A stretch of 26,834 bases of DNA from a virus (Duplodnaviria > Caudoviricetes), in the IMG/VR virus record IMGVR_UViG_3300037069_002417, positions 1 to 26,834 of that record, one strand, 5' to 3'. The position numbers and the translations under genes were made by a program. Numbering within the stretch: the first letter of the stretch is position 1; the number at the start of each line of letters is the position of its first letter. Below the pieces are notes generated by a model. The model did not search any database and was not told where the DNA came from. It saw nothing but the letters and a program-made list of their open reading frames with translations. Of the stretch, positions 599-26,834 are shown in pieces.

Positions 599-634
599 CT
601 GCTGTAGCAGGATTAGTTATTCCTACTACAGCAG
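599..634 (-). terminator. Hairpin just downstream of the 322-aa gene, possible terminator
   Basis: CTGCTGTAGCAGGA (599-612) pairs with TCCTACTACAGCAG (621-634) with 1 mismatch, about 30 bp past the stop at 665. No clear U-tract. The right arm overlaps a copy of the dispersed palindrome. Confidence 0.4.
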
Positions 635-664
635 TAACAACGAGGTCAGTCTTAGGCGTCAGGC

Positions 665-1633
665 TTAGGCTGCCGTCAGGGCGTCCACGTCATCCGGCGT
701 GAACGTTGAGGGTGACAAGGCGGCACCGATGGACTTCTTGCCACCACGGGCGCGCTTGGCCGCCTTGGGTGCGGGCGGCGCGACCGTCTCGACCTCGACC
801 TCGGGGACTTCCTCGGTCGCGGGGACTTCTTCGGTCTCGGTCGGCTCGTTCAGCAGGCCCTCGATCGTCTGGTCCGGCTGATCCGATACTACGGTCGTAG
901 CACCGGGAACCATACCGCGCACTGCGTCGAGGACTTCCTTGGTCACGGTCGCGAGACCATCGGCGGCCGCCACGATGTCGGCCAGATCGAAGTGGCTGGA
1001 GATCGCGCGCAGCTTGCCCACGATGGCCTCCAGTTCCTTGGCAGTCTTGGCGGTGTCCACCTTGCGGTCGGCGATGACGCGATGCGCCTCGGCGATCAGA
1101 TGGTCCATCGTCGGGATGCTCGCGCCGTCTTTGATGAAGCGCGAGGTCGAGAGGATGCAGTGATACTTGCGCAAGAACGCCTCACGCAGCGGCTTCGGCG
1201 CACCCTTCTCGGGGTTCTCGCCTTCGATCGTCCAGGCGTCGTTGCACATCCCGATGATGCGGCCGATGTCGTCACGCACGTTGGGGTGCATGACCACGCC
1301 GGCTTCTGAGATGAACGTTTTGATGGACTTGGACAGACCCTGCTGGTCTTCCTTGGCCTTCTTCAGCATGGAAGACGCCGCGGAAATCTCCAGCTCCGTC
1401 CAGCTACCCTCGGCGGAGCGGTCCGCGAGGGCGCGCATGGCGTTCTCACGGGCGTTGGATGCCTCGACCTTGGCCTTGTCGTTTTCATCCTTGGCGTTGG
1501 CCGCGAGACCGTCGGCGTAGGCGATCTCGGTCCGGCAGACCGAGGTAATCGTGCTGGAGATCGAGGACAAGCGCGCCGCATCGTTGGTCTGCTTGGCCTT
1601 GATGGCGAGAACCGTGTTCAGAACGTTTGTCAT
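665..1633 (-). CDS. Hypothetical protein (322 aa), helical, with an acidic then basic low-complexity C-terminus
   Basis: Long ORF with GC3-biased codons. Start reassigned to ATG at 1633 (MTNVLNTV) because a GGAGG RBS lies at 1646-1642. No family recognised. Confidence 0.8.
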   Translation of the reverse strand: MTNVLNTVLAIKAKQTNDAARLSSISSTITSVCRTEIAYADGLAANAKDENDKAKVEASNARENAMRALADRSAEGSWTELEISAASSMLKKAKEDQQGLSKSIKTFISEAGVVMHPNVRDDIGRIIGMCNDAWTIEGENPEKGAPKPLREAFLRKYHCILSTSRFIKDGASIPTMDHLIAEAHRVIADRKVDTAKTAKELEAIVGKLRAISSHFDLADIVAAADGLATVTKEVLDAVRGMVPGATTVVSDQPDQTIEGLLNEPTETEEVPATEEVPEVEVETVAPPAPKAAKRARGGKKSIGAALSPSTFTPDDVDALTAA

Positions 1634-1725
1634 AGGCTTAGCCTCCAATGCTACTACGTAGTAGCGGGTTGACCGGGTTGCTCCGGTAGTGACAAGCGGG
1701 AGTGCGTGCCACTGCCGGAACAACG

Positions 1726-1764
1726 AAAAGCCGCGCGCGACCCTAAGAGGATCACGCGCGGCTT
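1726..1764 (-). terminator. Rho-independent terminator (minus strand)
   Basis: AAGCCGCGCG (1728-1737) pairs with CGCGCGGCTT (1755-1764), with further inner pairing. On the minus strand it ends in TTTT. Confidence 0.6.
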
Positions 1765-2257
1765 GACGGTTGGGGGTTGGAGTGCGTAGCCCCATCTCGC
1801 GCGGTTGCTAGGCGCGCAGGATGTTTGCGTTCTGATAAAGAGGCCGATTGTAGACCTAATTTGTTGCGTTCGCGCCCGGCTACGGAAGGATACTATCCAA
1901 CCCGCAAGATGCCTTTATGATGCGCCTGCCAATCCATACCTCACTACGGTCGCTCTGTTCATCGCACCATCGCTTGCCAGTATCTGCGCCTCATACGCCC
2001 GCAGACTTAACAATCGCATTGCGAGCAGGGGTTATCGTTACCGTGCGCACTTTGGATTAGGGTCATTGTTATGTCGGGCTGACCAAACTCCGCCCCGCTA
2101 GTCTCACTAGCCTGATATAGCTCCCCGCCTAACACCGCTCGGGCTCGCATTGTAAATGAACAGGTAGGCTAGACGCCGCAGGTCTATGGTGCCTGCTACC
2201 AGTTTAGGTCGTCTACACCCTAGTGGATCGGTCAGATACTACGTAGTAGCGCCTGCC

Positions 2258-2310
2258 GGGGGGTGGCCACCGGGGGGGCCATCTGTCCATGGGGGAGGGG
2301 GGCTGGGGGG
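2258..2310 (+). other. Cluster of five G-tracts (G-quadruplex-capable), followed by an A/T tract
   Basis: G6 (2258), G7 (2272), G5 (2291), G6 (2297), G6 (2305), then AAATTTTAATTCCAAAAATTT at 2357-2377. Confidence 0.6.
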
Positions 2311-2612
2311 TGCTGTTATCTAAGCCCCCAAGACACCCAGCCTAAAATCGCTTCCGAAATTTTAATTCCAAAAATTTGGACCCCTTCAAATCACACCCTT
2401 TTAACCTGCCACGCGCGCCGATTTCGTGTATCAACAATGCCTATTCGTTACGATAGCGTTACATGTCACAGTTACGAGAGTAGTGTTTTTGTTTGGTAAA
2501 CTCCGCTAGACACAAGGCGTTGCAGCGTGCGACACAGTGCGTCACCGGATGCGTCCCAAGCGGCTCCGGCACGCCGTTTTGATGCCCAACTACGGTAGTA
2601 GGAAGCCTGGAT

Positions 2613-3053
2613 ATGACAACCAAGCGGATCAGCAGTAGCCACTCCCAGATAGGGGAAGCGGCCCCGATCCCTCGTTTAGACGCCTTCCTAGCCGACCGGA
2701 TCACGGACTGGCTGAGCACAACCTACGAGAGCAGGCGAAAGCCAGAAATACAATCTAAAGTCCTTGCGCTGGTGCTCCAGCTCGCCTTTGATAAGAAGGG
2801 CGACCCGCAGCCCTTCCCCCGTCGGGAAGACCTCGCGGAGTATCTGTCCTGCTCCAAATTCACGATCGACGCGGCGATCTACCGCTCGATGGAGCGCGAC
2901 CTGATCCGCCCGGTGCTGCGCCCGGTCGAGGGCCATCTGGCGCGCGGCGGCGGCGTCAACCAGCTCCGCTATTTCGAGATCATCAGCGACGCGCTGAAAG
3001 CTGAATATGACAGCTACAGAAGGACTGCGGGACGGAAACGACCTGCTGCCTAA
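2613..3053 (+). CDS. Winged helix-turn-helix DNA-binding protein (146 aa), candidate repressor
   Basis: FPRREDLAEYLSCSKFTIDAAIYRSMERDLI has HTH spacing followed by a wing-like beta hairpin, plus a basic C-terminus. A palindrome copy ends 12 bp before the ATG. Confidence 0.7.
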   Translation: MTTKRISSSHSQIGEAAPIPRLDAFLADRITDWLSTTYESRRKPEIQSKVLALVLQLAFDKKGDPQPFPRREDLAEYLSCSKFTIDAAIYRSMERDLIRPVLRPVEGHLARGGGVNQLRYFEIISDALKAEYDSYRRTAGRKRPAA

Positions 3054-3234
3054 ATAGAAACAACTGAATAATATAACGAAGGGCAAACCATTGCCCATGT
3101 CGCGATAGTTGGGTGAAAGCTATTCCCCTTCATAGACAAACCCGTTAGAACCCAGTGACCCGTGGCCGTCGCCGTCCTGGACGGTCATTTAACTTGTGGG
3201 GCTGCTACGATAGTAGCACCCTGGAGGTCACGTA

Positions 3235-3480
3235 ATGCCCAGGTCGGGAGCCGCTGCTTCGACGCCACCGCGCATCGTCGCGGACGACATGAGCTACCCC
3301 AGTGAGGTCGCACGCCTGTTCGCGACATTCGTGTTCAGTGAGATCATCGAAGACTTCGCCCGCGCGGATTTAGCGCCGCTGCGCCATCGTCCCGCCGCCG
3401 TGGATCGGGCGCGCGACGAGGCGATCAAGGACATCACCAGCATCGCCAAGCTGCTCAACCACCCGCCGGACGCCGTCTGA
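3235..3480 (+). CDS. Hypothetical protein (81 aa)
   Basis: GGAGG RBS at 3223-3227, ATG start, typical codon usage. Confidence 0.7.
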   Translation: MPRSGAAASTPPRIVADDMSYPSEVARLFATFVFSEIIEDFARADLAPLRHRPAAVDRARDEAIKDITSIAKLLNHPPDAV

Positions 3481-3546
3481 TACCCTGCTAACGGGGTTCG
3501 CCGGCTTGCGTGATCGCGAGTCGGCGTGACACCCTGGAAACAGTTT

Positions 3547-3656
3547 GGGCCGGTCCTTTTGCAGAGGACCGGCCCGATACTGGTGGCAATGAGGAGGAAC
3601 CGTTCGACCCCCTCATTGCCACGCTCCATCCGTTTTTTCAACCCCCCACGGGGGGT
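3547..3656. promoter_or_regulatory. Three tandem hairpins in the leader of the Rep-like gene
   Basis: GGGCCGGTCCT/AGGACCGGCCC (3547-3575), GTGGCAATGAGG/CCTCATTGCCAC (3583-3622), ACCCCCC/GGGGGGT (3641-3656). Confidence 0.6.
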
Positions 3657-3673
3657 CGGGGAGAGCTGTGCCG

Positions 3674-4204
3674 ATGCCAAGCCAGAACTTTTTTTCACCA
3701 GGCCATGCAACCGCCACCGCGCGCCGCCTGCGCACCGCCGTCGCCGCCCGCGAGATCACCCCCTACGACTTCGTGATCGCCGACCATTTGCTGTGGCAGT
3801 GCCGCAAGCTGGGCCGCGCCGACGCCCGCATCTCGATGTCGGCGCTTGCCTCGCGGTGCGGGCGGGCCAAATCCACCGTCGAGAAAACCGTCAAACGTCT
3901 CGCCGACCTCGGCCTTTTCCGCGTGGTGAAATCGCGTCTCAGGGTCTGGTGGGGGGTGAACCATAGCTCGGTCGCGTCCCGCCAGGACGTGAACACCTAT
4001 GTTTTCTGCGCGCCGGACACAGAGACCGCGCGGCGGCCGGTAGAACGAGTCAAAGATAAAACCCTAGAGTCTCAACATGCTAGACCCTTGGGAAAAGAGC
4101 TTGCAGCGGCACTAGAAAGCTACCAAACTACAGTAGTAAAAATGCAAGGGGCGCGTAACCGTGAAAACACTGGTACTGCTGTCCCAAAAGGGGGGTGCTG
4201 GTAA
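3674..4204 (+). CDS. HTH-domain protein, putative plasmid-type replication initiator
   Basis: ISMSALASRCGRAKSTVEKTVKRLADLGLF winged HTH followed by RQDVNTYVF, the pattern of small alphaproteobacterial plasmid Rep/HTH_36-like proteins. Directly upstream of parA. Alternative start is GTG at 3668. Confidence 0.6.
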   Translation: MPSQNFFSPGHATATARRLRTAVAAREITPYDFVIADHLLWQCRKLGRADARISMSALASRCGRAKSTVEKTVKRLADLGLFRVVKSRLRVWWGVNHSSVASRQDVNTYVFCAPDTETARRPVERVKDKTLESQHARPLGKELAAALESYQTTVVKMQGARNRENTGTAVPKGGCW

Positions 4205-4841
4205 GAGCACGCTGGCGCTGCATATCGCGGTCTGTGCCGAACGACAGGGCCTGCGAACATTGCTCGTGGATGTCGATCCGCAGGGGTCGATCGCCGGCTG
4301 GGCCGAGCGGCGCGGCGAGCGCACCCCCGACGTGTTGCCGACTCATCCGGCCAAACTCGCCGCGGTGTGCGCCGACTCCGCGCGCGAAGGCTACGATCTG
4401 ATCGTCATCGACACGGCCCCCGCCGCCGATAGAGGGGCGCTGGTCGCCGCCGGGGTGGCCGATTTTATTTTGATCCCATGTCGGCCCGCGCAATTCGATC
4501 TCGACGCCGTGGTCACGACGGTGGCGATGATCCGCACTGTGCGAAAACCGTTCGCCATCGCGTTCAATGCCGCCCCGCCACGGGGCCGCCAGATCGAGGA
4601 CGCGACCTCGCTGGTGGTAGCGTCGGAATATCCCTATCTGGCGCACAGCATCCGCAGCCGTGTGGCGTTTCAATCCTGCCTGACCTCGGGCGATACCGCG
4701 ATGGAGCTGGAACCAAGCTCGATAGCGGCGCGCGAGATGGGTGATTTCTACGGCGAGCTGATGGGCCGCATGGACCGGCTCGACCGACTCGTTACCGCCG
4801 TGCCGAACGGCGACAACACCAAAACCAAGAGGAGTGCCTGA
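4161..4841 (+). CDS. parA: ParA-family partition ATPase (type Ib, no N-terminal HTH)
   Basis: Deviant Walker A KGGAGKST at the N-terminus, A' motif DVDPQGS, Walker B IVIDTAP, ADFILIP; 226 aa. Confidence 0.95.
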   Translation: MKTLVLLSQKGGAGKSTLALHIAVCAERQGLRTLLVDVDPQGSIAGWAERRGERTPDVLPTHPAKLAAVCADSAREGYDLIVIDTAPAADRGALVAAGVADFILIPCRPAQFDLDAVVTTVAMIRTVRKPFAIAFNAAPPRGRQIEDATSLVVASEYPYLAHSIRSRVAFQSCLTSGDTAMELEPSSIAAREMGDFYGELMGRMDRLDRLVTAVPNGDNTKTKRSA

Positions 4842-5140
4842 TGGCACTGAAAGCACCGCGAACACTGAACCGCCTGCCCGAGCCGCCGCCCGTGGAGCGC
4901 GTCCCAGGCCGTGCCCCAGCGGCGAGCAAGGGCCGCACGCGGCTGACGCCGATCAACGGCAAGGGCAAGCCTGTGGGCACCCGCGAGGGTCGCACGCAGG
5001 TGGCGTTCTTCATCAACCGGCAGGCCAAGAAGCAGCTCGATCAGTTCCGCATCGACGAGGATACCTCGTTGCAGGCGCTGATGATCGAAGCGGTCAACCT
5101 GCTGCTGGAGAAGAAGGGCAAACGGCCGAACGCGGAGTAG
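4841..5140 (+). CDS. Ribbon-helix-helix partition/centromere-binding protein (ParG-like)
   Basis: Coupled to parA (TGATG). Flexible basic N-terminus, then TQVAFFINRQAKKQLDQFRIDEDTSLQALMIEAVNLLL (beta-alpha-alpha). Confidence 0.8.
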   Translation: MALKAPRTLNRLPEPPPVERVPGRAPAASKGRTRLTPINGKGKPVGTREGRTQVAFFINRQAKKQLDQFRIDEDTSLQALMIEAVNLLLEKKGKRPNAE

Positions 5141-5144
5141 CACC

Positions 5145-5405
5145 ATGAGCGACGATCCGATCCTGGCCGCCCTGGCGCGGCTGGAGGCCGGGCAAGTGGC
5201 CGTGATGGAACGCCTCGACCGACTACAGAACGCGATCACGGCGATCCGCGACGACATCGGCGTGAACTTCGCGCGGGCGAGCCGTGCAATCGAGGTGAAC
5301 GATCACACCCGCGCGGAACTGCGCACGCTCGGCTCCGAGGTCTCGGGGATGCAGCGGCAAATCCAGCGGCTGCAAAGCGACGTGCGCGAGCTGCGCGGCG
5401 AGTGA
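5145..5405 (+). CDS. Small coiled-coil protein (86 aa)
   Basis: Heptad pattern throughout; GGAG upstream; follows the RHH gene by 4 bp. Confidence 0.7.
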   Translation: MSDDPILAALARLEAGQVAVMERLDRLQNAITAIRDDIGVNFARASRAIEVNDHTRAELRTLGSEVSGMQRQIQRLQSDVRELRGE

Positions 5406-5478
5406 CCGCCCGCTAAGGCGTTTCCCCCGCGCCCTTTGCTATGTTACTACCGTCGTAAGAGTTCGACGGAGTCCGGCT

Positions 5479-5904
5479 ATGCGCCTCGATCTGTTCCGCG
5501 AGCAGTCCGCCAGTGGTGCCACCATCGGCAGGCTCCACGTCGACGACGATTTCGAGTGCCACACGCTTGAGGATGTCGTGCGCGACCGCGAGAAAATCCC
5601 CGGCCGCACGGCGATCCCGGACGGCACCTACGGTGTCGTCGTCACCCACTCGCCGCGCTTCGGCGTGCTGATGCCGCTGCTGGTCGGGGTGCCCGGCTTC
5701 GAGGGCGTGCGCATCCATACCGGCAACACCGCCGAGGATACCGAGGGCTGCATCCTGGTTGGCCAGGGCCGCGACGACGACTCGATCAGCAGCTCGCGCG
5801 CCGCCTATGCGGCGCTGTTCGCCAAGCTCAAGGCCGCCCATGACAGCGGCGAGACCATCACGCTGACCATCCATCCAACGCAGCGCGAGGGAGCCGAGTC
5901 GTGA
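5479..5904 (+). CDS. DUF5675-like protein, putative endolysin/peptidase
   Basis: TIGRL..CHTLED..IPDGTY..HSPRFG..VPGFEGVRIHTGNTAEDTEGCILVG has the His/Cys pattern of the L,D-transpeptidase-like DUF5675 phage family. GGAG RBS. Confidence 0.85.
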   Translation: MRLDLFREQSASGATIGRLHVDDDFECHTLEDVVRDREKIPGRTAIPDGTYGVVVTHSPRFGVLMPLLVGVPGFEGVRIHTGNTAEDTEGCILVGQGRDDDSISSSRAAYAALFAKLKAAHDSGETITLTIHPTQREGAES

Positions 5905-6200
5905 GCCTGAAAACCAAGAATACCGACTACCGTTTCAGCACGGCGTCGTTTTCCCATCTCAAGCTGATCGTGCCCGGCACGCCGTTCCCGGTCACCGACG
6001 GGCTGCTGACCGGCGTGGCGGGGGTGGCCGACCTGACCATGGCCTCGGGCGTGGTGGTGCTCGGGGTGCCGCTGGTGGCGGGCTACAACCCGCTGCGGGT
6101 GGTCGCCGTGGCCGCGTTCACGCCGACCGCCGTGGGTGCCGCCGACGTGGTGTTCGCGGGCTACTGCTACGGCGTACCGATGAGCGGCCTGCTGCCGTGA
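5901..6200 (+). CDS. Putative head-spike base protein (RcGTA Rcc01079-like)
   Basis: About 100 aa, beta-rich, GLLTGVAGVADLTMASG...LVAGYNPLRVVAV. Coupled (GTGA) to a spike-fibre-like gene. Confidence 0.55.
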   Translation: MSLKTKNTDYRFSTASFSHLKLIVPGTPFPVTDGLLTGVAGVADLTMASGVVVLGVPLVAGYNPLRVVAVAAFTPTAVGAADVVFAGYCYGVPMSGLLP

Positions 6201-8902
6201 GCGACCTTGGCATCGGCGTCGGCGTGCCGATGCTCGTGGCGCGCGGCGGGGCCGACGCAGGGGGCGGCACCAGACCCGAGCAGGTGTGGGGGCCGAACCT
6301 GATCACCAACCCGACCGGCCTGGGCGCGGTCGCGGGGACCATCGGCGCGGGCGGGGCGTTCCCGACGGATTGGGGCCTCTTTTCTGGCACCACCGACGCG
6401 ACCGTCGACGTCATCGAGCGGCTGGGCAGCCCAGGCGGCACGTTCCGCGTGCATGGTGCCCTGACCGCCTCGACGGCGTTTGAGTTCGTGTTCCAACAGC
6501 CGGAGCCGCCGCTGATCGCGGGGGCCACCTACGCCATGAGCGTGGACGTGCGGCTGACGGCGGGCGATCTGACCTTGCCGACGATTGACAGCGTGGGCCT
6601 GACGATCCAGGCCAGCGCGGGCGACTGGGCTTCCGTCTCTATCGCTGATGCAGATGCCACATGGAAAACCTACACCATCCCGCCATCGGTCATCGGCGGC
6701 ACCATCGCGGACCCAGGGCAGACTGTCAGCATCGACTTCGGCTACTACGTCCTCGCAGCGGGGGACGCGCTCGATTTCACGCTTGAGTTCAACAACGTCA
6801 CGCTGCGGCGGCTGCTGACGGTCGACACCGGGCCGGACTATTTCCTCGGACCCAATCTGGTCACCAACCCGACCGGCCTCGGCGCGGTCGCGGGCACGGT
6901 CGGCGCGGACGGGGCGATGCCAACGGAGTGGTCGGTCTACGAAACCGGCGGTGCCACCGTCGACGTCATCCCGCTGCCGGACGGCGAGGGCTGCTCGTTC
7001 CACATCCACGGCACGCTGAGCACGGTGAACTACATCGTCCTGGCGTTCCAGCAGCCGCAGGTCCCCTACACGCCGGAGGAGATTTTCACCGGCAGCGCGG
7101 AAATCTGGCTGATCGCGGGCAGCTTCGCCGGGGCCACGTATGGGGCGCTCGACATCTACGAGAACAGCGGCAACGGCGACGTCACGACGAGCTTCCTGGA
7201 CGCCACCGCGACCCCGCGCACCTACATCATCCCACCCAACGCGATCCACGCCGCCGACCCGCCCAACTCTACTACGGTAGCATTCACCCCGTACTGGTCC
7301 GTCGCCGCCGTCGGCGATGCGGTGGACTTCACTGTCGGGATCAACAACGCCACGCTGCGCCGGGCCACGCCCAAGCCGAAGCCACCATCCCTCACAATCG
7401 ACTTCTTGCAGCCCGGCCCGCTCGACCCGCGCATCGTGTTCGCCCGCGCCAGCGGGGGCACCTACATCGACGCCACCGGCATCCTGCGGACCGCCGCCGT
7501 GGACGAGCCGCGCTGGGACTACGACGCGCAGGGGACCCTGCTCGGGCTGCTGCTCGAACAGAACAAGACCAACCTCATCTATTCGTCCGTGATCGACGCG
7601 ACGTGGGGGCCAGACGGCGACGCGCAGCTTACTGGCGCGACAACGCGGCCAGATGGCACGTCGGGAGCCTCGCTGATCGCCGCGGGCGGCACGAGTGATA
7701 GCGTCCGTTCGCTGATCGGCCCGATCGTCACCGGCACAGCCGCGTCGACACCCTACACCGTGTCGGTGTTCCTCAAGCGCGACACCACCAACGCCTATAT
7801 CCAGGTGAACCTCCAAGACGCGGGAGCGACCTACGCGGCGGGCGTGGCCTATTACGACCTGACCAGCGGCGCGGCGGTCATAGGCGACCCGCTTGCTGGC
7901 GCTCTTGCGGACGCCGTGGCGACCCTGACCCCCATCGGCAACGGATGGTTCCGCGCCACGCTGGCGTTCACCACCAATGCCGCGTCGGACCGGATCGCCT
8001 GCTTCATCGGCCCGTGCATGACGGTCACGGGGGCGGGCGACCACCGAAACTATCCGGGCGTCGTCGGCCAGGGCGTCTATGCGTGGGGTGCCCAGGTCGA
8101 AGCCGCCGGGTTCGCGTCCAGCTACATCCCGACGACGGCGGCGGCGTTGGCCGCCCGCGCCGACGATCTGTACAGCGTCCCGGTCGGCCCCTGGTACGAC
8201 GCGGCCGAGGGCGCGATGGCGCTGGAATACATCCTCAAGGGCGCATTCCCCGGCTACAACGGGCCGATGCAACTGGTCGGCGCGGACCGGGATAACGACT
8301 ACATCGACATGGATCAGGTCGGCGTAGGGCCGGAGACGGCACCAATGTTATCTGCGGTTCAGGTGTCCATCGGCGGCAACGGCCCCTACGATCTCTACGG
8401 CACTCCCGTCCCCATTCCCGCGCACACGATCAACAAGGGCGCGTCGTCATGGGCGGCGGGCGGCGCGATCATCGGCGCGCATAACGGTGTGGGATCGAAC
8501 AACAGCGGCGGCAACGCCGTGGCCGCGCTGCCGGAGATCGTCGCCCTGACCGTCGCGGGCCAGATGCACTACCAGTGGCCGTGGAGCCTGTGGGCGCGCA
8601 GCGCGAAATACTGGCCCAGCGAACTGACCATGGCCGAACTCGTGGCCGAGACGACGCTGCCCGCGCCGCCGGCGGCCAAGCCATCGCCACCGGACAAGCC
8701 CACGCTGCCGACGCTGCCCGACAAGCCCTCGCTGCCCGACAAGCCGACGCTGCCGGACAAGCCGCTGCTGCCGCCGGAGAAGCCACCGGAGAAGCCGCCG
8801 GAGAAGCCGCCGGAGACGCCCACGCTGCCCGACAAGCCGCTGCTGCCGCCGCTCAAGCCGCCGGCGGGCATCGCGCAACCCAAACGACGAGGCCGCCCAT
8901 GA
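6197..8902 (+). CDS. Head-spike/fibre protein (901 aa) with a duplicated N-terminal beta domain and Pro-rich tail
   Basis: FARASGGTYIDATGILRTAAVDEPRWDYD..GLLLEQNKTNLI and WGAQVEAAGFASSYIPTT..ARADDL are motifs typical of phage/GTA head-spike fibre domains. Confidence 0.75.
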   Translation: MSDLGIGVGVPMLVARGGADAGGGTRPEQVWGPNLITNPTGLGAVAGTIGAGGAFPTDWGLFSGTTDATVDVIERLGSPGGTFRVHGALTASTAFEFVFQQPEPPLIAGATYAMSVDVRLTAGDLTLPTIDSVGLTIQASAGDWASVSIADADATWKTYTIPPSVIGGTIADPGQTVSIDFGYYVLAAGDALDFTLEFNNVTLRRLLTVDTGPDYFLGPNLVTNPTGLGAVAGTVGADGAMPTEWSVYETGGATVDVIPLPDGEGCSFHIHGTLSTVNYIVLAFQQPQVPYTPEEIFTGSAEIWLIAGSFAGATYGALDIYENSGNGDVTTSFLDATATPRTYIIPPNAIHAADPPNSTTVAFTPYWSVAAVGDAVDFTVGINNATLRRATPKPKPPSLTIDFLQPGPLDPRIVFARASGGTYIDATGILRTAAVDEPRWDYDAQGTLLGLLLEQNKTNLIYSSVIDATWGPDGDAQLTGATTRPDGTSGASLIAAGGTSDSVRSLIGPIVTGTAASTPYTVSVFLKRDTTNAYIQVNLQDAGATYAAGVAYYDLTSGAAVIGDPLAGALADAVATLTPIGNGWFRATLAFTTNAASDRIACFIGPCMTVTGAGDHRNYPGVVGQGVYAWGAQVEAAGFASSYIPTTAAALAARADDLYSVPVGPWYDAAEGAMALEYILKGAFPGYNGPMQLVGADRDNDYIDMDQVGVGPETAPMLSAVQVSIGGNGPYDLYGTPVPIPAHTINKGASSWAAGGAIIGAHNGVGSNNSGGNAVAALPEIVALTVAGQMHYQWPWSLWARSAKYWPSELTMAELVAETTLPAPPAAKPSPPDKPTLPTLPDKPSLPDKPTLPDKPLLPPEKPPEKPPEKPPETPTLPDKPLLPPLKPPAGIAQPKRRGRP

Positions 8903-9060
8903 ACATCATCGTCCTGCTGCTGATCATCCTGCTGCTGTTCGGCGGCCTCGGCGGTCTCGGCTACCGGCAGGGCTGGGTCGGCTCCGGCTACGGCGTCTAT
9001 GGCGGCAGCGGGCTGGTGCTCATCGTCCTCGTCGTGATCCTGGTCCTGGTGTTCCGCTAG
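8899..9060 (+). CDS. Small two-TM membrane protein (53 aa, DUF3309-like)
   Basis: ATGA overlap with the fibre gene. MNIIVLLLIILLLFGG...GGSGLVLIVLVVILVLVFR. It is the real 3' part of track ORF 8575..9060. Confidence 0.75.
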   Translation: MNIIVLLLIILLLFGGLGGLGYRQGWVGSGYGVYGGSGLVLIVLVVILVLVFR

Positions 9061-11032: not shown

Positions 11033-11082
11033 GTTCCAGCCACGAGCTATTGCGTCAGCGCCTTAGCATGGCCTAGTCATGG

Positions 11083-11097
11083 CTACTACGGTAGTAG
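11083..11097. promoter_or_regulatory. Perfect palindrome copy in the divergent terS/portal promoter region (operator candidate)
   Basis: CTACTACGGTAGTAG in a 78-bp divergent intergenic gap, just before the portal RBS (AAGGGGG) and after a weak TTGCGT-N18-TAGTCA promoter-like element. Confidence 0.65.
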
Positions 11098-14365: not shown

Positions 14366-14368
14366 CCT

Positions 14369-16520: not shown

Positions 16521-16562
16521 ACTACTACGGTCGTAACCTCACGCACCGTAAGGCCCGCGCCG

Positions 16563-16931: not shown

Positions 16932-16941
16932 TGGGGGCCTC

Positions 16942-17556: not shown

Positions 17557-17969
17557 TGGGCGCGATCTACGACATCACCGCCGCCGAGTTCGCGCGCGGG
17601 CGCATCGACTGGGGCGTGCAGAGCCTCGTGCTGGCGCTGACGTCTGTGGCTTACACGCCCAGTTACGCCGCCGAGAAGCATGTCATCGACCTGCCGACCG
17701 GCGTGGTGATGACGCCGTTCTACCCGCTGTTCGCGCCGGTCGTGCGCTCCGACGGCGTGTGCCAGGTCAACCGCGCCATCCTGCCTGGTGTCACGACCAC
17801 CGGGCCGATCAAGGGCGCGCTGATCGCCTTCGATGACGGCGGCGGCGACAGCAGCACGTTCCAGCTCGCCTGCTTCCTCGACCAAGGGCTCGGCTTCGGG
17901 ATGTGGCCGGAGCAGGAAGATATCAGCATCAACTGGGATGCGAACTTTGGCGGCGTGCTCAAGCTGTGA
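17556..17969 (+). CDS. Virion structural protein, hypothetical (137 aa)
   Basis: TGATG coupling; GGAGG upstream; MGAIYD..GRIDW..DISINWD. Confidence 0.7.
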   Translation: MGAIYDITAAEFARGRIDWGVQSLVLALTSVAYTPSYAAEKHVIDLPTGVVMTPFYPLFAPVVRSDGVCQVNRAILPGVTTTGPIKGALIAFDDGGGDSSTFQLACFLDQGLGFGMWPEQEDISINWDANFGGVLKL

Positions 17970-18559
17970 GTAGGTATTCCATCGAGCCGATCGGCGTCGA
18001 GCTGGCGACCGTCGCGGTGTCGTGCCAGCTCGACTACGACGAACTGACGCTCACGGGGGCCGGGCCGGGACGGGTAGGGACCATTATGCTCAAAGCACGC
18101 GGCACTACCGTAGTAGTTCCTACCGATGGCGGCGGCGAGATTTTGTTCTGGCAGCCGACCATCGCCGCCGTGCCCATCGTCGGCCGCGTCACCAAGCACC
18201 CGCGCGACCGGGCGCGCTACACCGTGGACTTTACCGACTGGGTGGACCCCGGCGAGCTGCTGGTGTCGATCAGCGACGTGCTGGTGACCCTGCTGGCGGC
18301 GACCTGGGCCGGTCCCTACCCGCCGTCGATCCCGCCCGCCGGCCCGGTCGTGCTGCCGCCCGATCCGACGCCGCTCACGGTCCACTCGGCCTACCTCCTC
18401 GACAACGACGTGCAGGCGCAGGTGTTCGTCGATTTCGGCACCGACGGGAACACCTACGCGCTCGAATTTACGGTCGGCGGCACGTCCGGCCGCGCCATCA
18501 ACGTCCGGGTCGACTGCTCGGTCCGCTCCGGCGTCATCAAGGCGGTGCAAGCGCTATGA
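17966..18559 (+). CDS. Putative fibre-tail adaptor protein (197 aa)
   Basis: GTGA coupling; KHPRDRARYTVDFTDWVDPGELL..GTDGNTY pattern; precedes the fibre gene. Confidence 0.6.
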   Translation: MSRYSIEPIGVELATVAVSCQLDYDELTLTGAGPGRVGTIMLKARGTTVVVPTDGGGEILFWQPTIAAVPIVGRVTKHPRDRARYTVDFTDWVDPGELLVSISDVLVTLLAATWAGPYPPSIPPAGPVVLPPDPTPLTVHSAYLLDNDVQAQVFVDFGTDGNTYALEFTVGGTSGRAINVRVDCSVRSGVIKAVQAL

Positions 18560-20106
18560 CGGTCCAGTTCGCCAACAACGCGGTCTCGGCGTTGCAGGTC
18601 GGCATCTCGCCGACCGACAACCATCTCATCGTCGCCCCCGCCGACGCGGCGCTGTTCCCGCCCGCCGGCGGCACCGACGTGTTCGACCTCGTGATCGAGG
18701 ACAGAAAAGTCGTCCCGCCGATCCGCGAGATATGCCGGTGTTACTCCCGTAGCACCAACAATCTCCAGGTCACGCGCGGCACCGAGGGCACCGCGGCGCT
18801 GGCCTGGGCGCCGGGGGTGATCGTCTCGCACCGCATCACCGCCGCCGGCATGGCGACGCTGCGCGATGACAGCTTCTACGGCCAGCGGCTGCTCGGCTCG
18901 TTCGGCACCGCGCCGACGATCCGCCCGGACGGCACGCCGCTTGAGGTCGGCGACCACTACTACGACACCACCTTGCGGGAATTGTTCGTCTGGCTGCCCG
19001 GCGGCTGGGCGAGTGCGGCCAACGACATCGCCGGCGACACCACCATCGGCGGCTATCTGAACGTGGGCAAAGACGCCGCCGTGGACGGCAATCTGCACGT
19101 CCTCGGCACCGCCAAGGTGGACGGCGCGACCACGCTGGCGGGCCTGACGGTTACCGGCACGGTGACCGCGACGGGCGCGGTCACCGTGCAGACCCTCACC
19201 GTCAACGGCAACGAGAATGTCGGCGGCGTGCTGGCCTCGGCGACCGGCATCACCACGCCGGGCTACATCCATGCCGGCGGCTCGCTCGATGCTTATACCC
19301 TCAACGTCGGGGCCGGCGGTGCCAACGTCAACGGCGCGTTTTCCGCGTCGTCGATCTATACGGCGGGCAATATCTCGACGCCGCTGGACATCTACGGCCG
19401 CCGCATCATCGCCAGCGCCGACGTGTATGCGTACACCGACATCCAGGGCACCAACATCACCGCGCGCGGCAACCTCAGTGCGAACGGCAACGCGGGCATC
19501 GCCGGCGGCCTGAGCGTGGGCGTCGATATCACCGCCGGGCGCAACGTCACCGGGGCCTACGGCCAGTTCAACTCGGCACACATCCTCGGCCCGCTCAATG
19601 TCGACGGCGCGTTCGGCGCGGGCACGTCGATCTGGTCGGGCGGCGCGATCTCCGCCGTCGGCAGCATCAACGCCAACGGCAACGTCATCGCCGGGGCCGC
19701 GCTGCAAGGGGCCTATGTCCACTCGACCGGCAGCACGCAGACCGACGGCGACAGCGTCACCAACGGGGTGATCTATGTCGGCGGCACCGGCGGCATCCTT
19801 ATGTTCGTCTCGAACGCCACTCGCGAGATACGCTACACGACGGATGGCTGGTCCTCTACGTTCGACTGGTCTAGCGGCATCTTCGGGTGGTTCACCCCCG
19901 GCAGCGTCGCCAATATGTTTCTCGACAGCGTCGGCAATCTGCATGTCCACGGGCAGGTCTATGGCGGCCAGCGCGCCGCCAGGGTCGCGGGCGTGCTGGA
20001 GGTCGAGCCGGGCAACCCGGTGTCCTACGACGCCATGATCGAGGCACTGGCCGCGCGCGTCGCCGCTCTGGAAGCGCTACTACCGACGCAGACCTCGCGC
20101 GGATGA
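18556..20106 (+). CDS. Tail fibre/spike protein (516 aa)
   Basis: ATGA coupling; N-terminal anchor FANNAVSAL..RGTEGTAALAW..HRITA; Gly-rich beta repeats; C-terminal coiled coil. Confidence 0.8.
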   Translation: MTVQFANNAVSALQVGISPTDNHLIVAPADAALFPPAGGTDVFDLVIEDRKVVPPIREICRCYSRSTNNLQVTRGTEGTAALAWAPGVIVSHRITAAGMATLRDDSFYGQRLLGSFGTAPTIRPDGTPLEVGDHYYDTTLRELFVWLPGGWASAANDIAGDTTIGGYLNVGKDAAVDGNLHVLGTAKVDGATTLAGLTVTGTVTATGAVTVQTLTVNGNENVGGVLASATGITTPGYIHAGGSLDAYTLNVGAGGANVNGAFSASSIYTAGNISTPLDIYGRRIIASADVYAYTDIQGTNITARGNLSANGNAGIAGGLSVGVDITAGRNVTGAYGQFNSAHILGPLNVDGAFGAGTSIWSGGAISAVGSINANGNVIAGAALQGAYVHSTGSTQTDGDSVTNGVIYVGGTGGILMFVSNATREIRYTTDGWSSTFDWSSGIFGWFTPGSVANMFLDSVGNLHVHGQVYGGQRAARVAGVLEVEPGNPVSYDAMIEALAARVAALEALLPTQTSRG

Positions 20107-20143
20107 GCTACTACCGTCGTAACCACCTAGCAGGAGCAGCACC

Positions 20144-20323
20144 ATGAAGGGTATTCCGTCCGGCAAGATCGGCCCGTCCTCGGTCGATCCGGCCTCGAAA
20201 GGCAGCAACCCCGCCGGCAACTCGCCGGGCAATCCTGGCAAGTCCAAGGCCGCGCCCGCGATCCCAGGCCCGAGCAAGCCGGGGATGCCGATCTCCATGA
20301 AGAAGGCGCTGCGGCGTAAGTAG
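20144..20323 (+). CDS. Lys/Pro/Gly-rich microprotein (59 aa)
   Basis: AGGAG RBS at 20132; MKGIPSGKIGPSSVDPASKG...MKKALRRK. Not in the ORF track. Confidence 0.7.
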   Translation: MKGIPSGKIGPSSVDPASKGSNPAGNSPGNPGKSKAAPAIPGPSKPGMPISMKKALRRK

Positions 20324-20334
20324 GAGGTTTTCCG

Positions 20335-20487
20335 ATGGCCAAGAACCCGTTCGCCAAGAAGTCCGCCAAAGGCTTCGAGCAGTCCAAGTTCGACAACGAC
20401 AAGGGCGTCAAGGAAGGCTCGAAGGCGGACATGAAGCGCGATGCCAAGGAACTGCCGAAGTTCATGGCGGCGAAGAAGCGGAAGTAG
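20335..20487 (+). CDS. Lys-rich microprotein (50 aa)
   Basis: AGGAGG RBS at 20322; MAKNPFAKKSAKGFEQSKFDNDKGVKEGSKADMKRDAKELPKFMAAKKRK. Not in the ORF track. Confidence 0.75.
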   Translation: MAKNPFAKKSAKGFEQSKFDNDKGVKEGSKADMKRDAKELPKFMAAKKRK

Positions 20488-20525
20488 CGCACTACCGTAG
20501 TAGAAAACTACCGTGATAGGCAGCG

Positions 20526-22280
20526 ATGGTACAGTGGTCGGTCAAGGATATGGGCGGCGAGATGCCGAGGACCGACCCTCGGCTGCTGCCGCCCGCGATG
20601 GCCGAGGACGCCTGGAACGTCGATCTCCAGTCCGGCCCGCTCGATGGGCTGGGCGTGCCGCTGCTGATCAAGGATTTGACCGCCGCCCCTGATCCGGTGA
20701 TGCGGGCCTACCGGCTGCCGGGGCCGGTCGTGGGCGACCCCGATGCGTGGCTGCCGCTACCCTCGCCCTATTCGAGCTGCGTGCGCTCGCCCTTGGCCAA
20801 CGACCAATACCGTCGCGTCTACTGGACATCGCCGGGGGAAAACGCGAAGTGGTCGACCTACGACGACATCCGCAACGGCTGGCCGCCCTACGATCTCGGC
20901 GTGATCCAGCCGACCGCCGCCTACACGCCCGTGGTCAGCGCCTCCGGCGGCACCGCGCCGGACGTGGTGCCGTGGGTGTCGCGCTCCTACCTGATCACCT
21001 TCATCAATTCCTACGGCGAGGAGAGCGCGCCCAGTCCGCCCTCCGACCCGGTGGACGGGGCATCGGACGGCGACTGGCAGATTTGGGTCAACGGCGCGCT
21101 GCCGGGGCCGGTGGCGGGCAGGAACTATCCGGGGCCGATCACCATCCGGCTGTATCGCACCGTGGTCGGGCAGACCTCGGGCGCGGTCTACTACCAGGTG
21201 CGCGACTTCAAGATCAGCCTCGGCGACGTGCCACCGCAGCCCTATCACGACACGCTGCTCGACAGCGAGATCGTCGGCAACCTCGTGCTGGCCAGCACCA
21301 ACTGGGTCAACCCGCCGGACAACCTCGACGGCATGACCGTCATGCCCGGTGGGATGCTGGTCGGGTTCACGCGCAACACCGTGCATTTCTGCGAGCCGGA
21401 CCACCCGCACGCATGGCCCGCCAGCTACGATCAAAGCCTGATCTTCGATATCGTCGGCTTCGGCGTCTGGCAGCAAAGCCTCGTCGCGTTGACGCTCGGC
21501 ACGCCGGCCATCGGCTCGGGCCAGATGCCGTCCTCGTTCACCTTCTCCGGCTTGCAGGTGCCGGAGCCTTGCATCTCCCGTGGCAGCATCATCACCGACC
21601 TCATGGGCGTCTACTATTCATCCCAGAACGGCTTGATAATGCTCAATTATATGGGAATGCAAAATATGACTCTGCAACAAGTTACCCGGAATATCTGGCT
21701 CGAAGAATACAAGGGTGCAAGTTTGATAGCGTGTCGACACCGTAGTCAGTTCCTGGCGATCAACGGCGGCGACCACGGGTTCATCATCGACTACGGCGAG
21801 CCGCGCCTGGGCGTCATCCACATCGACCCGGTCTCCGGGGCCGACTGCGTGTGGAACGACCCCTATGACGGCAGCACCTTCATCATCAACGACAAGCTGG
21901 TCTACCGCTGGGACGATCCGACGGCGCAGGCGATGACGTGGCGCTGGCGCAGCAAGAAATTCAACCTGCCCAAGCCGACCAATATCGGCGCGGTGCAGCT
22001 CTGGGTCTCGAAGGAGGTTACTACCGCAGTAGCACCGCCCGCGCCGCCGATGAGCACGCAGGACAATTCCGGTCTGGTGCTGCCGGACGGCGTGGTCTGC
22101 CTGTTCCGGTTGTTCGCCGACGACGAGATGATCTACGAAATGCCGATCATCGAGCCGCTGCAACTGCTGCGCCCGCCCTCGGGGCTGATGGCGTACGAGT
22201 GGCAGTTCGAGATCGTGTCCTGCATCGCCGTCTATCAGGTGCAGCTCGCCACCACGGTGAAGGAGCTGCAAGGTGCCTGA
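20526..22280 (+). CDS. Tail nozzle / tail tubular protein B-like (584 aa)
   Basis: [64 protein letters not shown]; beta-propeller-type podoviral nozzle. Confidence 0.75.
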
Positions 22281-23580: not shown

Positions 23581-24020
23581 ACATCCGCATCAACCACCCC
23601 GGCGACGGCCATTGGATCATGCAGCAGGTCCAAGGCGTGTTCTCGCCGGACACCGATCATTCGCTTATGAACTACGACGGTAGTAACACTCGGCGCGGAG
23701 GGTTCGCGCTGTGCAACTATTTGGGTGCCTCGATCACGGTCCACATGGCGGGCAGCGATCCCCGCTGGTGCTCGCGCGAGCTGATGTGGATGGTGTTCGA
23801 CTACTCGTTCAACCAGCTCGGTGTGCGCAAGGTGCTGGCGCTGGTGCGCTCCACCAATGAGATCGCGCTGGATCAGGACATGCGCGCGGGCTTCAAGCTC
23901 GAAGCCATCATCCGCGAGGTCTACCCCGACGCCGACATGTGGGTGCTCGGCATGACCCGCGCGCAATGCCGCTGGCTGGCGCTCAAGCCCAAGCACCATC
24001 GCATCGAGAGGGCCGCGTAA
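23577..24020 (+). CDS. GNAT-fold acetyltransferase-like virion assembly protein (147 aa)
   Basis: ATGA coupling, GGAGG RBS; [24 protein letters not shown]....RAGFKLE; usual position before ejection proteins. Confidence 0.8.
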
Positions 24021-24910
24021 TGGGCGGCAAGCAGAAAGCGCCCCCGGCGCCCGACTACACGCCGCTGGTCGCCGCCTCGACGCAGAACGCGGATACGGCG
24101 CGCTACGCGGCGGACAAAGCCTACGACACGTCGCAGCAGCAGCTCGACTGGGCGCGGCAGCAATATGCCGACCAGAAGCCGCAGACCGATGCCTTTATGA
24201 AGTCAATGATCGCCAACAGCGACCAGCAGACGCAGCAGGCCAGCGACGCCGAGGCGCGCTACAAGTCGGTCTACCAGCCGATCGAGGACAAGTTCGCGAG
24301 CGAGGCGACCGGCTGGAACTCGCCGACGCGCTCGAACCAGCAGGCCGGAGCCGCCGAGGCGGAGGTCGCCACCCAGTTCAACCAAGCCCGCAACGCCAGC
24401 CAGTCGGCGTTGGAGAGCTACGGCATCGACCCCAGCCAGACCCGCTATGCCGCCCTGGATTTGGGCACCCGCGTGCAGCAGGCCGCCGCGCAGGCCACCG
24501 CCGGCACTCAGTCGCGCGTGCAGACCGAGGCCACGGGCTTGGCACTCCAGGGCGAGGCGGTCAATATCGGCCGCGGCTATCCGGGGCAGGTGGCGCAGTC
24601 CTACGCCGGGGCGACGCAGGCGGGCACGTCGGGGATCAATGCCGGTCTCGGGACCATGTCCACCGGCAGCAACATGATGGGCAACCCGGCCTCGTGGTTC
24701 TCCGGCGGGTCGAGTGCATTAAATTCGTCGACCGGCGCGCTCGCCGGGGCCGGCAACATGATGAATACCGGCTTTCAGGACAACATGGCCCACACCCAAT
24801 ACAACAACCAGCAGATCGCCCAGAATATGCAGGGCATCGGCCGGATGATCGGTGGCGCGATTTCCGGTGGCATGAGCGGCGGCGGCTCGGCCCTGCTCGG
24901 TATGCTGTAG
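24020..24910 (+). CDS. Internal virion / DNA ejection protein (296 aa)
   Basis: TAATG coupling; [13 protein letters not shown] start, Gln/Ala-rich helices, Gly-rich hydrophobic C-terminus. Confidence 0.75.
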   Translation: MGGKQKAPPAPDYTPLVAASTQNADTARYAADKAYDTSQQQLDWARQQYADQKPQTDAFMKSMIANSDQQTQQASDAEARYKSVYQPIEDKFASEATGWNSPTRSNQQAGAAEAEVATQFNQARNASQSALESYGIDPSQTRYAALDLGTRVQQAAAQATAGTQSRVQTEATGLALQGEAVNIGRGYPGQVAQSYAGATQAGTSGINAGLGTMSTGSNMMGNPASWFSGGSSALNSSTGALAGAGNMMNTGFQDNMAHTQYNNQQIAQNMQGIGRMIGGAISGGMSGGGSALLGML

Positions 24911-24923
24911 GAGCGTCGACACC

Positions 24924-26834
24924 ATGGCAATGAACATCGGGCCACTCGTCGACGGATTGTATTCCGGGGCCGACCACTACCAGGAAGCCAGCGCCCGGCA
25001 GATGGCCAACGACCGGCAGAAGATGGAGCTGGACGCGCTGCGCGCCGCCCTCGCGCCGGACGACGGCAGCTTCGGCGGCCAGCCGGGTGGCCAGCCGGGT
25101 GGCCAGCCGGGGACCATGCCGAACGGCCTGCCCGATCCGACCAAATTCCCCGGCGAGACGGGTTCTACTACGGTAGCACCATCCGCCGTCTCCGGCACGC
25201 CGCCGGTGCATCAGGTGTCGCACGAGGTCGATACCTCGGAGTTGGAGCGCAAGGCCAAGAAGCCCGGCGGCGTCACGTCCGACGAGGCGGCGAAGGAAAA
25301 GCCCGGTAAGGCGATCTACGACACGCCCGCCGGACCCCCGATCCCGGACGTGAACACCGGCCTGCCGCGCAGCGACACGCCCGCCTATACCGGCACGCCA
25401 CCGGGCGCGGGCGGGGCACCCGGTACCGGGCCGGTGCCGCCGCAGCCAACCACGGCTCCCGCCTATAGCGGCACGCCGCCGGGCGCGACGGGCGACGGCT
25501 CGAATGTGCCGCCGATCACCACGGGCGGACGGAACGTGCCGCCGACCAACACCGGGACGTGGCCGCCCCAAGCCCCCACCCCGCCCGCCACGCCGGAGCA
25601 GACGCAAGAGGAAAAGCTGCTCGCGATGTCGCCGGAGGAACGCCGTCGTGCGCTGCGCGGCCCGGTCCCCGGTCGCGCCCAGGCGGTGCCCCCACCCCCA
25701 TTGACGCCGCAGAGCGCGCTGCACGGCACGGGTGGCACGGCGGAGCCGCAGGAGCCGCCGCCGCCCGCTGCCCCCATCGGGCCGGACGATGGCAGCGACA
25801 GTTTTCCCTCCCCGCGCACGCCGCCCGCTTCGCAGACGGCGGCGATGGCCCCGCGCCGCGCGCTGGGCTTCGGGCCGATCCCGGCCAATGGCGGGATGCC
25901 CAACCTGTCGCGTCCGGGACAGCGCGTGGGCGAGACCACGGAGCCGCAATCCAGCCCGAACGCAAACTATCGCTATCCGCCGGAACGTCCCGCCGCCGGT
26001 CCCTACGCCCCGCCGCCCACGCCGCCCACGCCCGCGCCGGCCGATCCGCGCTCGCCGACGACCACGCCGCAAGGCTCGGCACTGCTCAACGGCCCGCGCA
26101 ACAGCCTCGGCATGACGCCGACGCCGTCGCAGGTCGGCGCACCGCAGATGGTCGCCCCCTCGCAGCCCGGCCAGCCCGGCTGGATTTCGAGCGTGCTGGG
26201 GCATCTCAACCCGATCTCGGCCGCGCACGGCGAGACGATGCCCACGCCGGCCCCTACTACGGTAGCAACCCAACAACCTACCACGCCGACACCCACGCCC
26301 GCCGCCACGGCTGGGGCACCGGCACCCGCACCCACGCCCGCGCCCGCGCCGGCCACGCCCGCGCCTGCGCCCGCGCCGGCCTCTGCATCGGCACCGGCAA
26401 ACGCCGAGAAACCGGCCACACCCTCGGCAACGCCCCCCGCGACACAGGGCGCACCCGCCGAGAAGCCGGTCGAAAAACCCGCGCCGTCGTTCGCCAAGGG
26501 CGACCCGCAGATCGAGGGCGAGCGCCCCGACACCAGCAAGGGGGAGCAATATACGCGCGGGCCGGTGTGGCACGGGCCGTTGCTGGAATTGCAGCGGCAG
26601 CGCCCGGACTTGGCGGCGACTGTCGAGAAGATCGCCGAGCGCGAGGGCATCGACCCGGCGCGGCTGGCGGCGCACTGGTACGCCGAGAGCCGGTTGCGCA
26701 CGTCGTCGGAAGACGGCAGCGCGGGCGAGCGCGGCATCATGCAGGTCAAGCCGGGGACGCAGCAGGAAGTCGACCCGAAGATGCAGCTCAACCCGGCCAA
26801 TCTCGAAGACAGCCTCACCATGGGGGCGCGCTAC
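24924..26834 (+). CDS. Large internal virion protein with lytic transglycosylase (SLT) domain; 3'-truncated (at least 637 aa)
   Basis: AGGAG RBS, frame open to the window end. Long Pro-rich region, then GIDPARLAAHWYAES (catalytic Glu at 26685), GIMQVKPGT, GARY. Absent from the ORF track because it has no stop. Confidence 0.85.
   Translation, partial: MAMNIGPLVDGLYSGADHYQEASARQMANDRQKMELDALRAALAPDDGSFGGQPGGQPGGQPGTMPNGLPDPTKFPGETGSTTVAPSAVSGTPPVHQVSHEVDTSELERKAKKPGGVTSDEAAKEKPGKAIYDTPAGPPIPDVNTGLPRSDTPAYTGTPPGAGGAPGTGPVPPQPTTAPAYSGTPPGATGDGSNVPPITTGGRNVPPTNTGTWPPQAPTPPATPEQTQEEKLLAMSPEERRRALRGPVPGRAQAVPPPPLTPQSALHGTGGTAEPQEPPPPAAPIGPDDGSDSFPSPRTPPASQTAAMAPRRALGFGPIPANGGMPNLSRPGQRVGETTEPQSSPNANYRYPPERPAAGPYAPPPTPPTPAPADPRSPTTTPQGSALLNGPRNSLGMTPTPSQVGAPQMVAPSQPGQPGWISSVLGHLNPISAAHGETMPTPAPTTVATQQPTTPTPTPAATAGAPAPAPTPAPAPATPAPAPAPASASAPANAEKPATPSATPPATQGAPAEKPVEKPAPSFAKGDPQIEGERPDTSKGEQYTRGPVWHGPLLELQRQRPDLAATVEKIAEREGIDPARLAAHWYAESRLRTSSEDGSAGERGIMQVKPGTQQEVDPKMQLNPANLEDSLTMGARY

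Follow-up and report, generated by a model that had tools for sequence, protein, structure and literature searches.

Dispersed repeats of open function are a standing puzzle of phage genomes, exemplified in the accessible text of the relevant papers by the dyads of Cluster O mycobacteriophages, the start-associated sequences (SAS) and extended SAS (ESAS) of Cluster K, and the repeats of T1-like phage TLS. The element studied here is a 15-bp palindrome, CTACTAC-N-GTAGTAG, that recurs along a 26,834-nucleotide stretch of DNA from a soil phage of the Caudoviricetes (record IMGVR_UViG_3300037069_002417), which as a whole is called the window below. The palindrome lattice is real and family-wide, and relative to the earlier repeat cases it adds natural re-spellings over many lineages, in integrated as well as free members, together with a statistical signal for selected spacing, a named candidate reader and cultured Rhizobium phages that allow direct tests.

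The Cluster O dyads are the closest published case. As the accessible text describes them for Corndog, these are 17-bp dyad repeats in 34 copies, of open function, for which a dimeric phage-encoded reader has been proposed (PMC4351075). They have dyad symmetry, exceed 30 copies genome-wide and are absent from the host (PMC4351075); many are intergenic or near 5' ends, about a third are intragenic, and they are denser among small non-structural genes. The lattice described here follows the same general pattern of a dyad in at least 30 copies, partly intragenic and absent from host DNA, the last point having been established on relatives. The consensus is nevertheless a different one, in an unrelated phage group. 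The 7-bp arms of Corndog are invariant around a 3-bp spacer, whereas here the arms are degenerate and the centre has two lengths, and the present lattice is family-wide, with many spellings, integrated members and a tested tendency to fill gaps. The first-pass annotation of the window knew of no described system with this motif; we likewise found no account of it, or of repeats in RHph_TM phages, in a literature search that left subscription papers and supplements outside, and the accessible part of PMC8245606 does not name TM3, but a very similar arrangement, which that annotation did not name, is the one published for Cluster O (PMC4351075).

The stoperators of L5/Cluster A and of Streptomyces phage R4 are also many short genome-wide sites in temperate phages, often at gene junctions (PMC4351075, PMC10276819, PMC12266134), and in number and placement they resemble the at least 55 sites found here in about 46 kb, with an association with gene starts in 18 of 18 genomes. 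In the accessible descriptions stoperators have an identified immunity repressor, whereas no known repressor family is common to the carriers of the present sites. The Cluster K SAS/ESAS (PMC3203893) are tied to gene starts, the SAS overlapping the Shine-Dalgarno sequence and the ESAS having a consensus that varies from one related phage to another. The TLS repeats, 21 nt long and of open function (PMC11447400), are tied to gene starts too. As far as the accessible text goes, both are oriented and essentially intergenic, unlike the symmetric gap-fillers within genes that make up half of the sites here; SAS are oriented asymmetric 13-mers confined to translation starts, whereas 14 of 27 window sites lie within coding sequence.

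Dispersed palindromes are also found in KorB with its O_B operators on plasmid RK2, in the dispersed centromeres of N15 and in the conserved inverted repeats of phiC31 (for which our search found no paper), and in each case the reader is a dimer encoded by the replicon itself, with a role in repression, partition or both. Unlike the present lattice, these systems have far fewer sites per kb, and no ParB or KorB family was found in Pfam scans of the carriers' proteins. The scans, on our own gene calls, covered about 46 of the roughly 60 kb of this phage, with 34 open reading frames (ORFs) of the window and 28 of its early-region locus L317, and in addition 52 ORFs of relative G001, 217 of the 268 listed non-structural proteins of relatives G002–G010, 17 proteins of Rhizobium phage RHph_TM3_14A and 76 from prophage borders and relative G016. 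They also gave no helix-turn-helix (HTH) family common to the carriers and no nucleoid-protein family.

The palindrome lattice and its distribution

The window is a whole record (G000) of 66% GC and part of a podophage-type genome of about 60 kb. Its gene content is of podophage type (terminase, portal, capsid, adaptor, tail and putative ejection proteins), with further genes for ParA, a ribbon-helix-helix (RHH) protein and two HTH-like proteins and an orphan at 665–1633 (ORF 665-1633). Scored at three or fewer mismatches, CTACTACNGTAGTAG has 22 copies in the 26.8 kb, against a mean of 0.17 and a maximum of 2 in 100 dinucleotide shuffles of the window. When every 6-bp dyad with a spacer of 0–9 was scanned without bias, TACTAC-N-GTAGTA came out first, with 22 copies against 0.8 expected; this core is the conserved part of the site, and the outermost base is loose. 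The central base on the transcribed strand is G at 13, C at 10, A at 3 and T at 1 of the window sites, and weaker sites exceed the weight-matrix cut-off at about 1678, 9108 and 18741.

Of the 24 coordinates listed by the first-pass annotation, 21 are 15-bp sites at three or fewer mismatches, and the other three (1651, 2236 and 16820) are an even form of 14 bp that lacks the central base (0, 1 and 1 mismatches, respectively). The density it gave, about one site per kb, was borne out in the window. Its term "genome-wide" went beyond what a 26.8-kb fragment alone is large enough to show; locus L317, 100% identical over window positions 7–1794, now contributes 19 kb of the same phage's early region with 30 more sites (27 odd-form and 3 even-form, largest gap 1282 bp), bringing the phage to at least 55 sites in about 46 kb.

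An adapter or assembly artefact was considered and rejected, the sites being degenerate, the reading frames kept and the sequence recurrent in other assemblies. Contigs from three other soil runs match window positions 1–20000 in pieces of 0.6–4.7 kb, each piece differing at 0–3 positions. Forty of the letter differences were listed, and all of these fall outside the sites (15 further differences lie beyond those listed).

The seventeen relatives comprise ten near-complete genomes picked among 80 capsid-gene matches, six from bacterial assemblies and the cultured phage RHph_TM3_14A; a more distant element, G014, has no dyad and was left out of the set. All 17 show a dyad lattice, in lineage-specific spellings. 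Class I dyads have a core of the TAC-N-GTA type, spelled TTACTAC in G001 (40 copies; 59 sites overall), AACTAC in G002 (41 copies), TTACTCC in G003, TCACTAC in G016, TCCCTAC in G009 and even CCACTAG in G004. Class I also includes a weak lattice of CTATAG-N3 in G006 and G010. The class II dyad, TTACCY-N4-RGGTAA, occurs in G005, G008, G012, G013, G015, G019 and RHph_TM3_14A (43 copies), with a variant in G017. A second form, its centre one base shorter or longer, is found in many genomes.

A host element, an alternative that the first-pass annotation had raised, could be addressed on the hosts of relatives. In four bacterial assemblies of 3.3–8.7 Mb, exact class II matches lay on the phage contig or prophage in 3 of 3, 22 of 22, 4 of 4 and 3 of 3 cases, and prophage flanks of 26–40 kb held 0, 1 and 0 matches, the sites stopping at the prophage borders. 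For the class II relatives a host element is therefore rejected, exact matches being confined to phage DNA and the flanks nearly empty. Searched with the window-type exact pattern, five bacterial assemblies yielded 0, 0, 0, 0 and 3 matches, fewer than the reversed pattern gave as a control. An exact-motif scan of viral contigs gave at least 120 loci from 19 of 64 parts, and among these nearly all were low-GC chance matches and none was a convincing lattice. Three relatives (G012, G013 and G017) are integrated, with a tyrosine integrase at the border in 3 of 3, and integrated prophages retain their lattices.

Two arrangements were seen in passing among the relatives. One whole 60.6-kb family member is its own contig in a Bradyrhizobium isolate (L242 / G011:C42), with no integrase or ParA seen on it, possibly a carrier state. 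Another assembly holds a tandem double prophage at G012:C4 about 12000–137000 (L290–L296), which repeats every 61.9 kb and has one integrase only, at its right end.

The features of the window are listed below in its coordinates; the sites, being palindromes, are given without strand.

596–610: weak site, 3 mismatches, overlapping a terminator-like hairpin; one more than the first-pass annotation listed
623–637: site just downstream of ORF 665-1633
665–1633, minus strand: ORF 665-1633, first early gene, 322 aa, candidate reader; all-helical model, predicted homodimer via residues 189–239
886–900: site within ORF 665-1633, translated TTVV, in the disordered tail
1651–1664: perfect 14-bp even form directly upstream of the ORF 665-1633 ribosome-binding site
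1678–1692: weaker site (weight matrix), in tandem with 1651
2236–2249: 14-bp even form in the divergent early/late control region
2587–2601: site, centre 19 bp ahead of the start of the winged HTH (wHTH) gene
2613–3053, plus strand: wHTH-like protein, second candidate reader, patchy among relatives
3202–3216: site, centre 26 bp ahead of ORF 3235
4125–4139: site upstream of parA, within HTH 3674
4161–5140, plus strand: ParA (4161–4841) and RHH (4841–5140), accessory plasmid-type partition pair
5444–5458: site, centre 28 bp ahead of the DUF5675 gene
7269–7283: site within a tail protein gene, translated STTVA
9108–9122: weaker site (weight matrix) near the terL end
9671–9685: site within terL, translated ITTVV
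11083–11097: perfect 15-bp site between divergent terS and portal
12849–12863: site within the portal gene
14130–14144: site within ORF 13901-14365
15534–15548: site, centre 26 bp ahead of the major capsid gene
16522–16536: site right behind the capsid stop codon; many relatives have a dyad at the same junction
16820–16833: 14-bp even form within the adaptor gene
18102–18116: site within ORF 17966-18559
18741–18755: weaker site (weight matrix) within the tail-fibre gene
20077–20091: weak site where the tail-fibre gene ends
20108–20122: junction site ahead of ORF 20144
20489–20503: junction site ahead of ORF 20526
22018–22032: site within ORF 20526-22280
23672–23686: site within a GNAT gene, in another reading frame (YDGS)
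25165–25179: site within ORF 24924 (putative ejection protein)
26254–26268: second site within ORF 24924

Selection on the sites and their placement

In 300 synonymous-codon permutations of the window, intragenic sites averaged 0.34 with a maximum of 3, against the 13 observed, and in 8 of 8 genomes tested the intragenic count exceeded the maximum of the genome's own codon-shuffle null. These sites are spelled with rare codons (ACT is 5.5% of Thr, GTA 4.4% of Val), and mid-gene sites, about half of all, occur in all three phases. The excess over codon-preserving shuffles that the earlier reading of the window depended on is thus present.

A hairpin or translational operator acting as RNA at ribosome-binding sites would fit G001, G003 and G008, where one arm is the GGAG/GAGG Shine-Dalgarno sequence 9–14 nt before the start and often also the upstream stop codon, and it would fit the toleration of one-base centre changes, as in loops. 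The mid-gene sites in all three phases argue against it, and the arms rarely pair better than independent arms would. Departures from consensus in the window are one-sided in 50 cases, 9 of them G.U, with 1 compensatory change against 3.6 expected, and compensatory changes do not exceed the independent-arms expectation in 6 of 7 genomes. Pairing is therefore not kept by compensatory or G.U changes, although this is moderate evidence, since the score cut-off disfavours two-sided changes. We regard an RNA-level element as very improbable. The one-sided, pairing-breaking departures are better fitted by a duplex site with two tolerant half-sites, and the phage-specific dyad, kept by selection at the DNA level, is best read as the site of a dimeric protein.

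The placement of the sites follows two tendencies. Nine of 26 window sites lie 4–45 bp ahead of a start, against 1.3 expected, an association above expectation in every one of the 18 genomes, and in L317, with gene starts chosen manually, 18 of the 26 early genes have a site 5–45 bp upstream. In most genomes sites are 2–3 times denser outside the late region. Within the late region of the window, the sites fill gaps: when junction sites are held fixed and intragenic sites re-thrown, the observed coefficient of variation is 0.45 against 0.97 and the largest gap 1744 against 3773 bp (p=0.0002). Gap filling reached p<0.05 in 6 of 10 testable genomes, seven others having too few late sites and one not being delimitable, and in 8 of 17 genomes once one-base spacer variants were added. 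Evenness over whole genomes was significant in only 2 of 11; it is weak there because early regions are denser, and evenness is a late-region result. When the core genes are aligned, 31 of their 124 intragenic sites coincide in column with a site of another genome (null 11.6, maximum 24) and 93 do not; positions therefore partly persist and mostly turn over.

Such a pattern could also arise from a structural or self-marking lattice, in which a phage dimer compacts, loops or protects the genome, or tells phage from host DNA during take-over, and the preference for gene starts reflects no more than the freedom of intergenic DNA to vary. The filling of gaps within long late genes would follow from it, as would the 93 intragenic sites without a counterpart in the same column, density being kept while positions turn over, and the absence of sites from host DNA; the Cluster O authors, in the accessible text, doubted a role in transcription initiation for their dyads (PMC4351075). 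It accords poorly with the small early genes of L317, 18 of 26 of which have a site of their own although one per kb would suffice, with a five-fold difference in late-region density among relatives, and with the lack of a ParB/KorB or nucleoid-protein family among the proteins scanned. On balance we consider a structural lattice rather unlikely.

It is quite improbable that the sites serve the phage primase-helicase (DUF927) for priming or loading in replication. The primase is present in 17 of 17 relatives and a spacing of 1–2 kb matches that of Okazaki fragments, but a primase recognises a single strand, for which no dyad is required. In several relatives neighbouring sites are 5–13 kb apart, and the association with starts is left unexplained. 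Moreover, primase distance adds nothing to motif distance (partial correlations -0.03 and -0.46).

Repression as the proposed function and its candidate readers

We propose that the palindromes are operators of a phage-encoded dimeric repressor that, in the manner of stoperators, silences or throttles the whole genome, a reading that stands an even chance of being correct. The first-pass annotation had put forward a dimeric phage protein bound across the genome; a dyad under selection as DNA fits that view, and of the roles it offered, the distributed repressor is now the leading one and the ParA/RHH centromere is not upheld (below). In the proposed mechanism a dimeric phage protein would bind each site and repress. 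At gene starts the bound dimer would block initiation or early elongation, and within long genes evenly spaced copies would act as roadblocks capping the length of stray transcripts, the symmetric site working in both directions of transcription. The re-spelling between lineages may reflect divergence of the immunity type, lineage-specific spelling being what repressor–operator immunity groups show. In favour of a repressor, the family appears to be temperate, with tyrosine integrases in 3 of 3 integrated members and ParA in the window and G002; the phage of the window itself has ParA and RHH, and no integrase among the 46 kb seen of about 60 kb.

Several points weigh against operators of a repressor. 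Stoperators, in the accessible descriptions, are asymmetric and oriented with transcription, whereas the sites here are symmetric (centre G 13, C 10) and not oriented. The array would thus be stoperator-like in its working, yet outside stoperator membership, being symmetric and having no known repressor. Seven of 18 genomes have only 2–6 main-form sites in 21–37 kb of late genes, and tight tiling is therefore not universal. G001, with its 59 sites, has no detected integrase, ParA or ParB. Even spacing fits a structural role equally well.

The leading candidate for the reader is the product of ORF 665-1633, weakly inferred and, should the repressor be real, somewhat short of an even chance. Its family is present in 8 of 10 class I genomes. 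The neighbouring AAA gene served as the anchor for gathering 33 related loci (several are near-duplicates), of which 23 have a member of the family; of the ten loci without it, eight have less than 4.6 kb upstream and two are distant AAA genes lacking a lattice. Sites flank the gene in the window and in G001. The family comprises 349 clusters at 50% identity, and the site-encoded peptide T[TP]V[VAIG] occurs in 60 of 151 members, against 8.3 in shuffles, which ties the class I motif to many more lineages and does not make this protein the reader.

An AlphaFold model of residues 1–245 is all-helical (predicted local distance difference test, pLDDT, 92; predicted template modelling score, pTM, 0.81). 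A homodimer via residues 189–239 is predicted with a score of 0.56 against 0.08 for the best control; among solved structures, 20 of 30 homodimers and 1 of 23 single chains score as high. The runs agree in at least 48% of contacts at a pLDDT of at least 79. The C-terminal helices are predicted to dimerise, an arrangement in which the two N-terminal domains would stay unconstrained and could each contact a half-site at either of the two spacings. Conserved basic residues of the family are R62, R120, R155, K102, K112 and K151. Across 18 lineages, distance between these proteins correlates with distance between motif spellings (rho 0.43, partial 0.26, p=0.018), whereas four neighbouring early genes reach a partial correlation of at most 0.10.

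This candidacy, too, has weaknesses. The p value is uncorrected for five tests, the lineages were chosen for holding ORF 665-1633 and kinship was not removed; co-variation on 8 and on 7 genomes did not single the protein out, and its positional counterpart in class II gave a rho of 0.13. That slot holds a marginally similar protein in 7 of 8 class II genomes, the first early proteins of the two classes being only marginally similar (hhalign E 0.008 and 0.023), and G006 and G010, with their weak lattices, have no match to the family. Over its first 240 residues the protein carries a net acidic charge (median -4), and it has no recognisable repressor fold and no Pfam or PHROG family. Searches gave no PDB sequence match, no ESM Atlas match above 0.9 and, when BFVD and PDB were searched by Foldseek with an initial model of pLDDT 74, nothing at E<=0.001; the best VIA match of that model (Z 8.8, root-mean-square deviation 2.9, 100 aligned) is of a quality that helical bundles with no relationship also attain.

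Confirmation of this reader would establish a novel DNA-binding fold, for which nature already supplies a library of specificities, and perhaps also a hitherto undescribed means of whole-genome silencing in temperate phages. A fuller version, in which the dimer of a new class of phage DNA-binding protein, encoded by the first early gene, coats or silences the genome via 50–60 sites kept evenly spaced by selection, with reader and site re-spelling together as a self/non-self code, is a tentative proposal and on present evidence unlikely.

Beside this gene, a strong terminator-like hairpin (17 pairs, T tail; window 1728–1764, minus strand) stands about 95 bp upstream of ORF 665-1633, and two sites lie between it and the start, possibly for attenuation or an internal promoter. 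A promoter scan of window 1–6000 found 2 where 1.7 were expected.

The same operators might have another reader, such as the wHTH 2613 family or another small regulator, or act with the opposite sign, as a lytic activator or timer. In favour of wHTH 2613, which the earlier annotation had named as a possible binder, are the site 19 bp upstream of it, its position in the divergent control region and homologues in 12 of 20 other lineages tested, and RHph_TM3_14A, although isolated from plaques, still has 43 sites, as an activator or timer would allow. The wHTH is, however, missing from near-complete G001, G003, G004 and G007 and from all 8 class II genomes, and half of the sites lie deep inside genes. 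We think another reader or sign improbable.

HTH 3674, likewise proposed as a binder, has a homologue in none of ten relatives. A dispersed centromere for the window's ParA/RHH pair, or nick or packaging marks on virion DNA, would have in its favour that ParA and RHH are present with a site upstream and that N15-type dispersed centromeres exist. ParA, however, is found in 1 of 10 relatives (G002) and RHH 4841 in none, yet G001 has 40 sites of the same spelling; integrated prophages keep their lattices, and divergence in TerS does not track that of the motif (rho -0.08). As neither ParA/RHH nor the wHTH is common to all carriers, the centromere reading fails, and together with packaging marks it retains only a very slight chance. 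The region at window 3674–5140, a replication-initiator-like HTH gene with ParA and RHH, forms a plasmid-type cassette absent from most relatives. With this cassette in few relatives and an integrase in others, the family seems to swap lysogeny modules.

Further observations on the family

Two overlapping sites lie at L203:13207-13220 within a lineage-specific HTH gene (G001 HTH gene 52898–53353). At L203:11960-12775 and in its homologues, a gene of 236–271 aa upstream of the DNA polymerase is shared by the two classes of motif (hhalign probability 90) and belongs to no Pfam or PHROG family. The early genes repeatedly include anti-defence genes of the Acb2/Tad1-like and Tad2-like types (L317:18434-18682; L215:16857-17084; L271:17357-17599). 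The "putative integrase" of RHph_TM3_14A (MN988472.1 42239–45322) matches DUF927 in Pfam, of the primase-helicase type, and no integrase family. Small Lys/Pro/Gly-rich ORFs lie amid the structural genes at window 20144–20487 and 13393–13889, one of them conserved in 10 of 18 genomes, and may encode DNA-condensing virion peptides.

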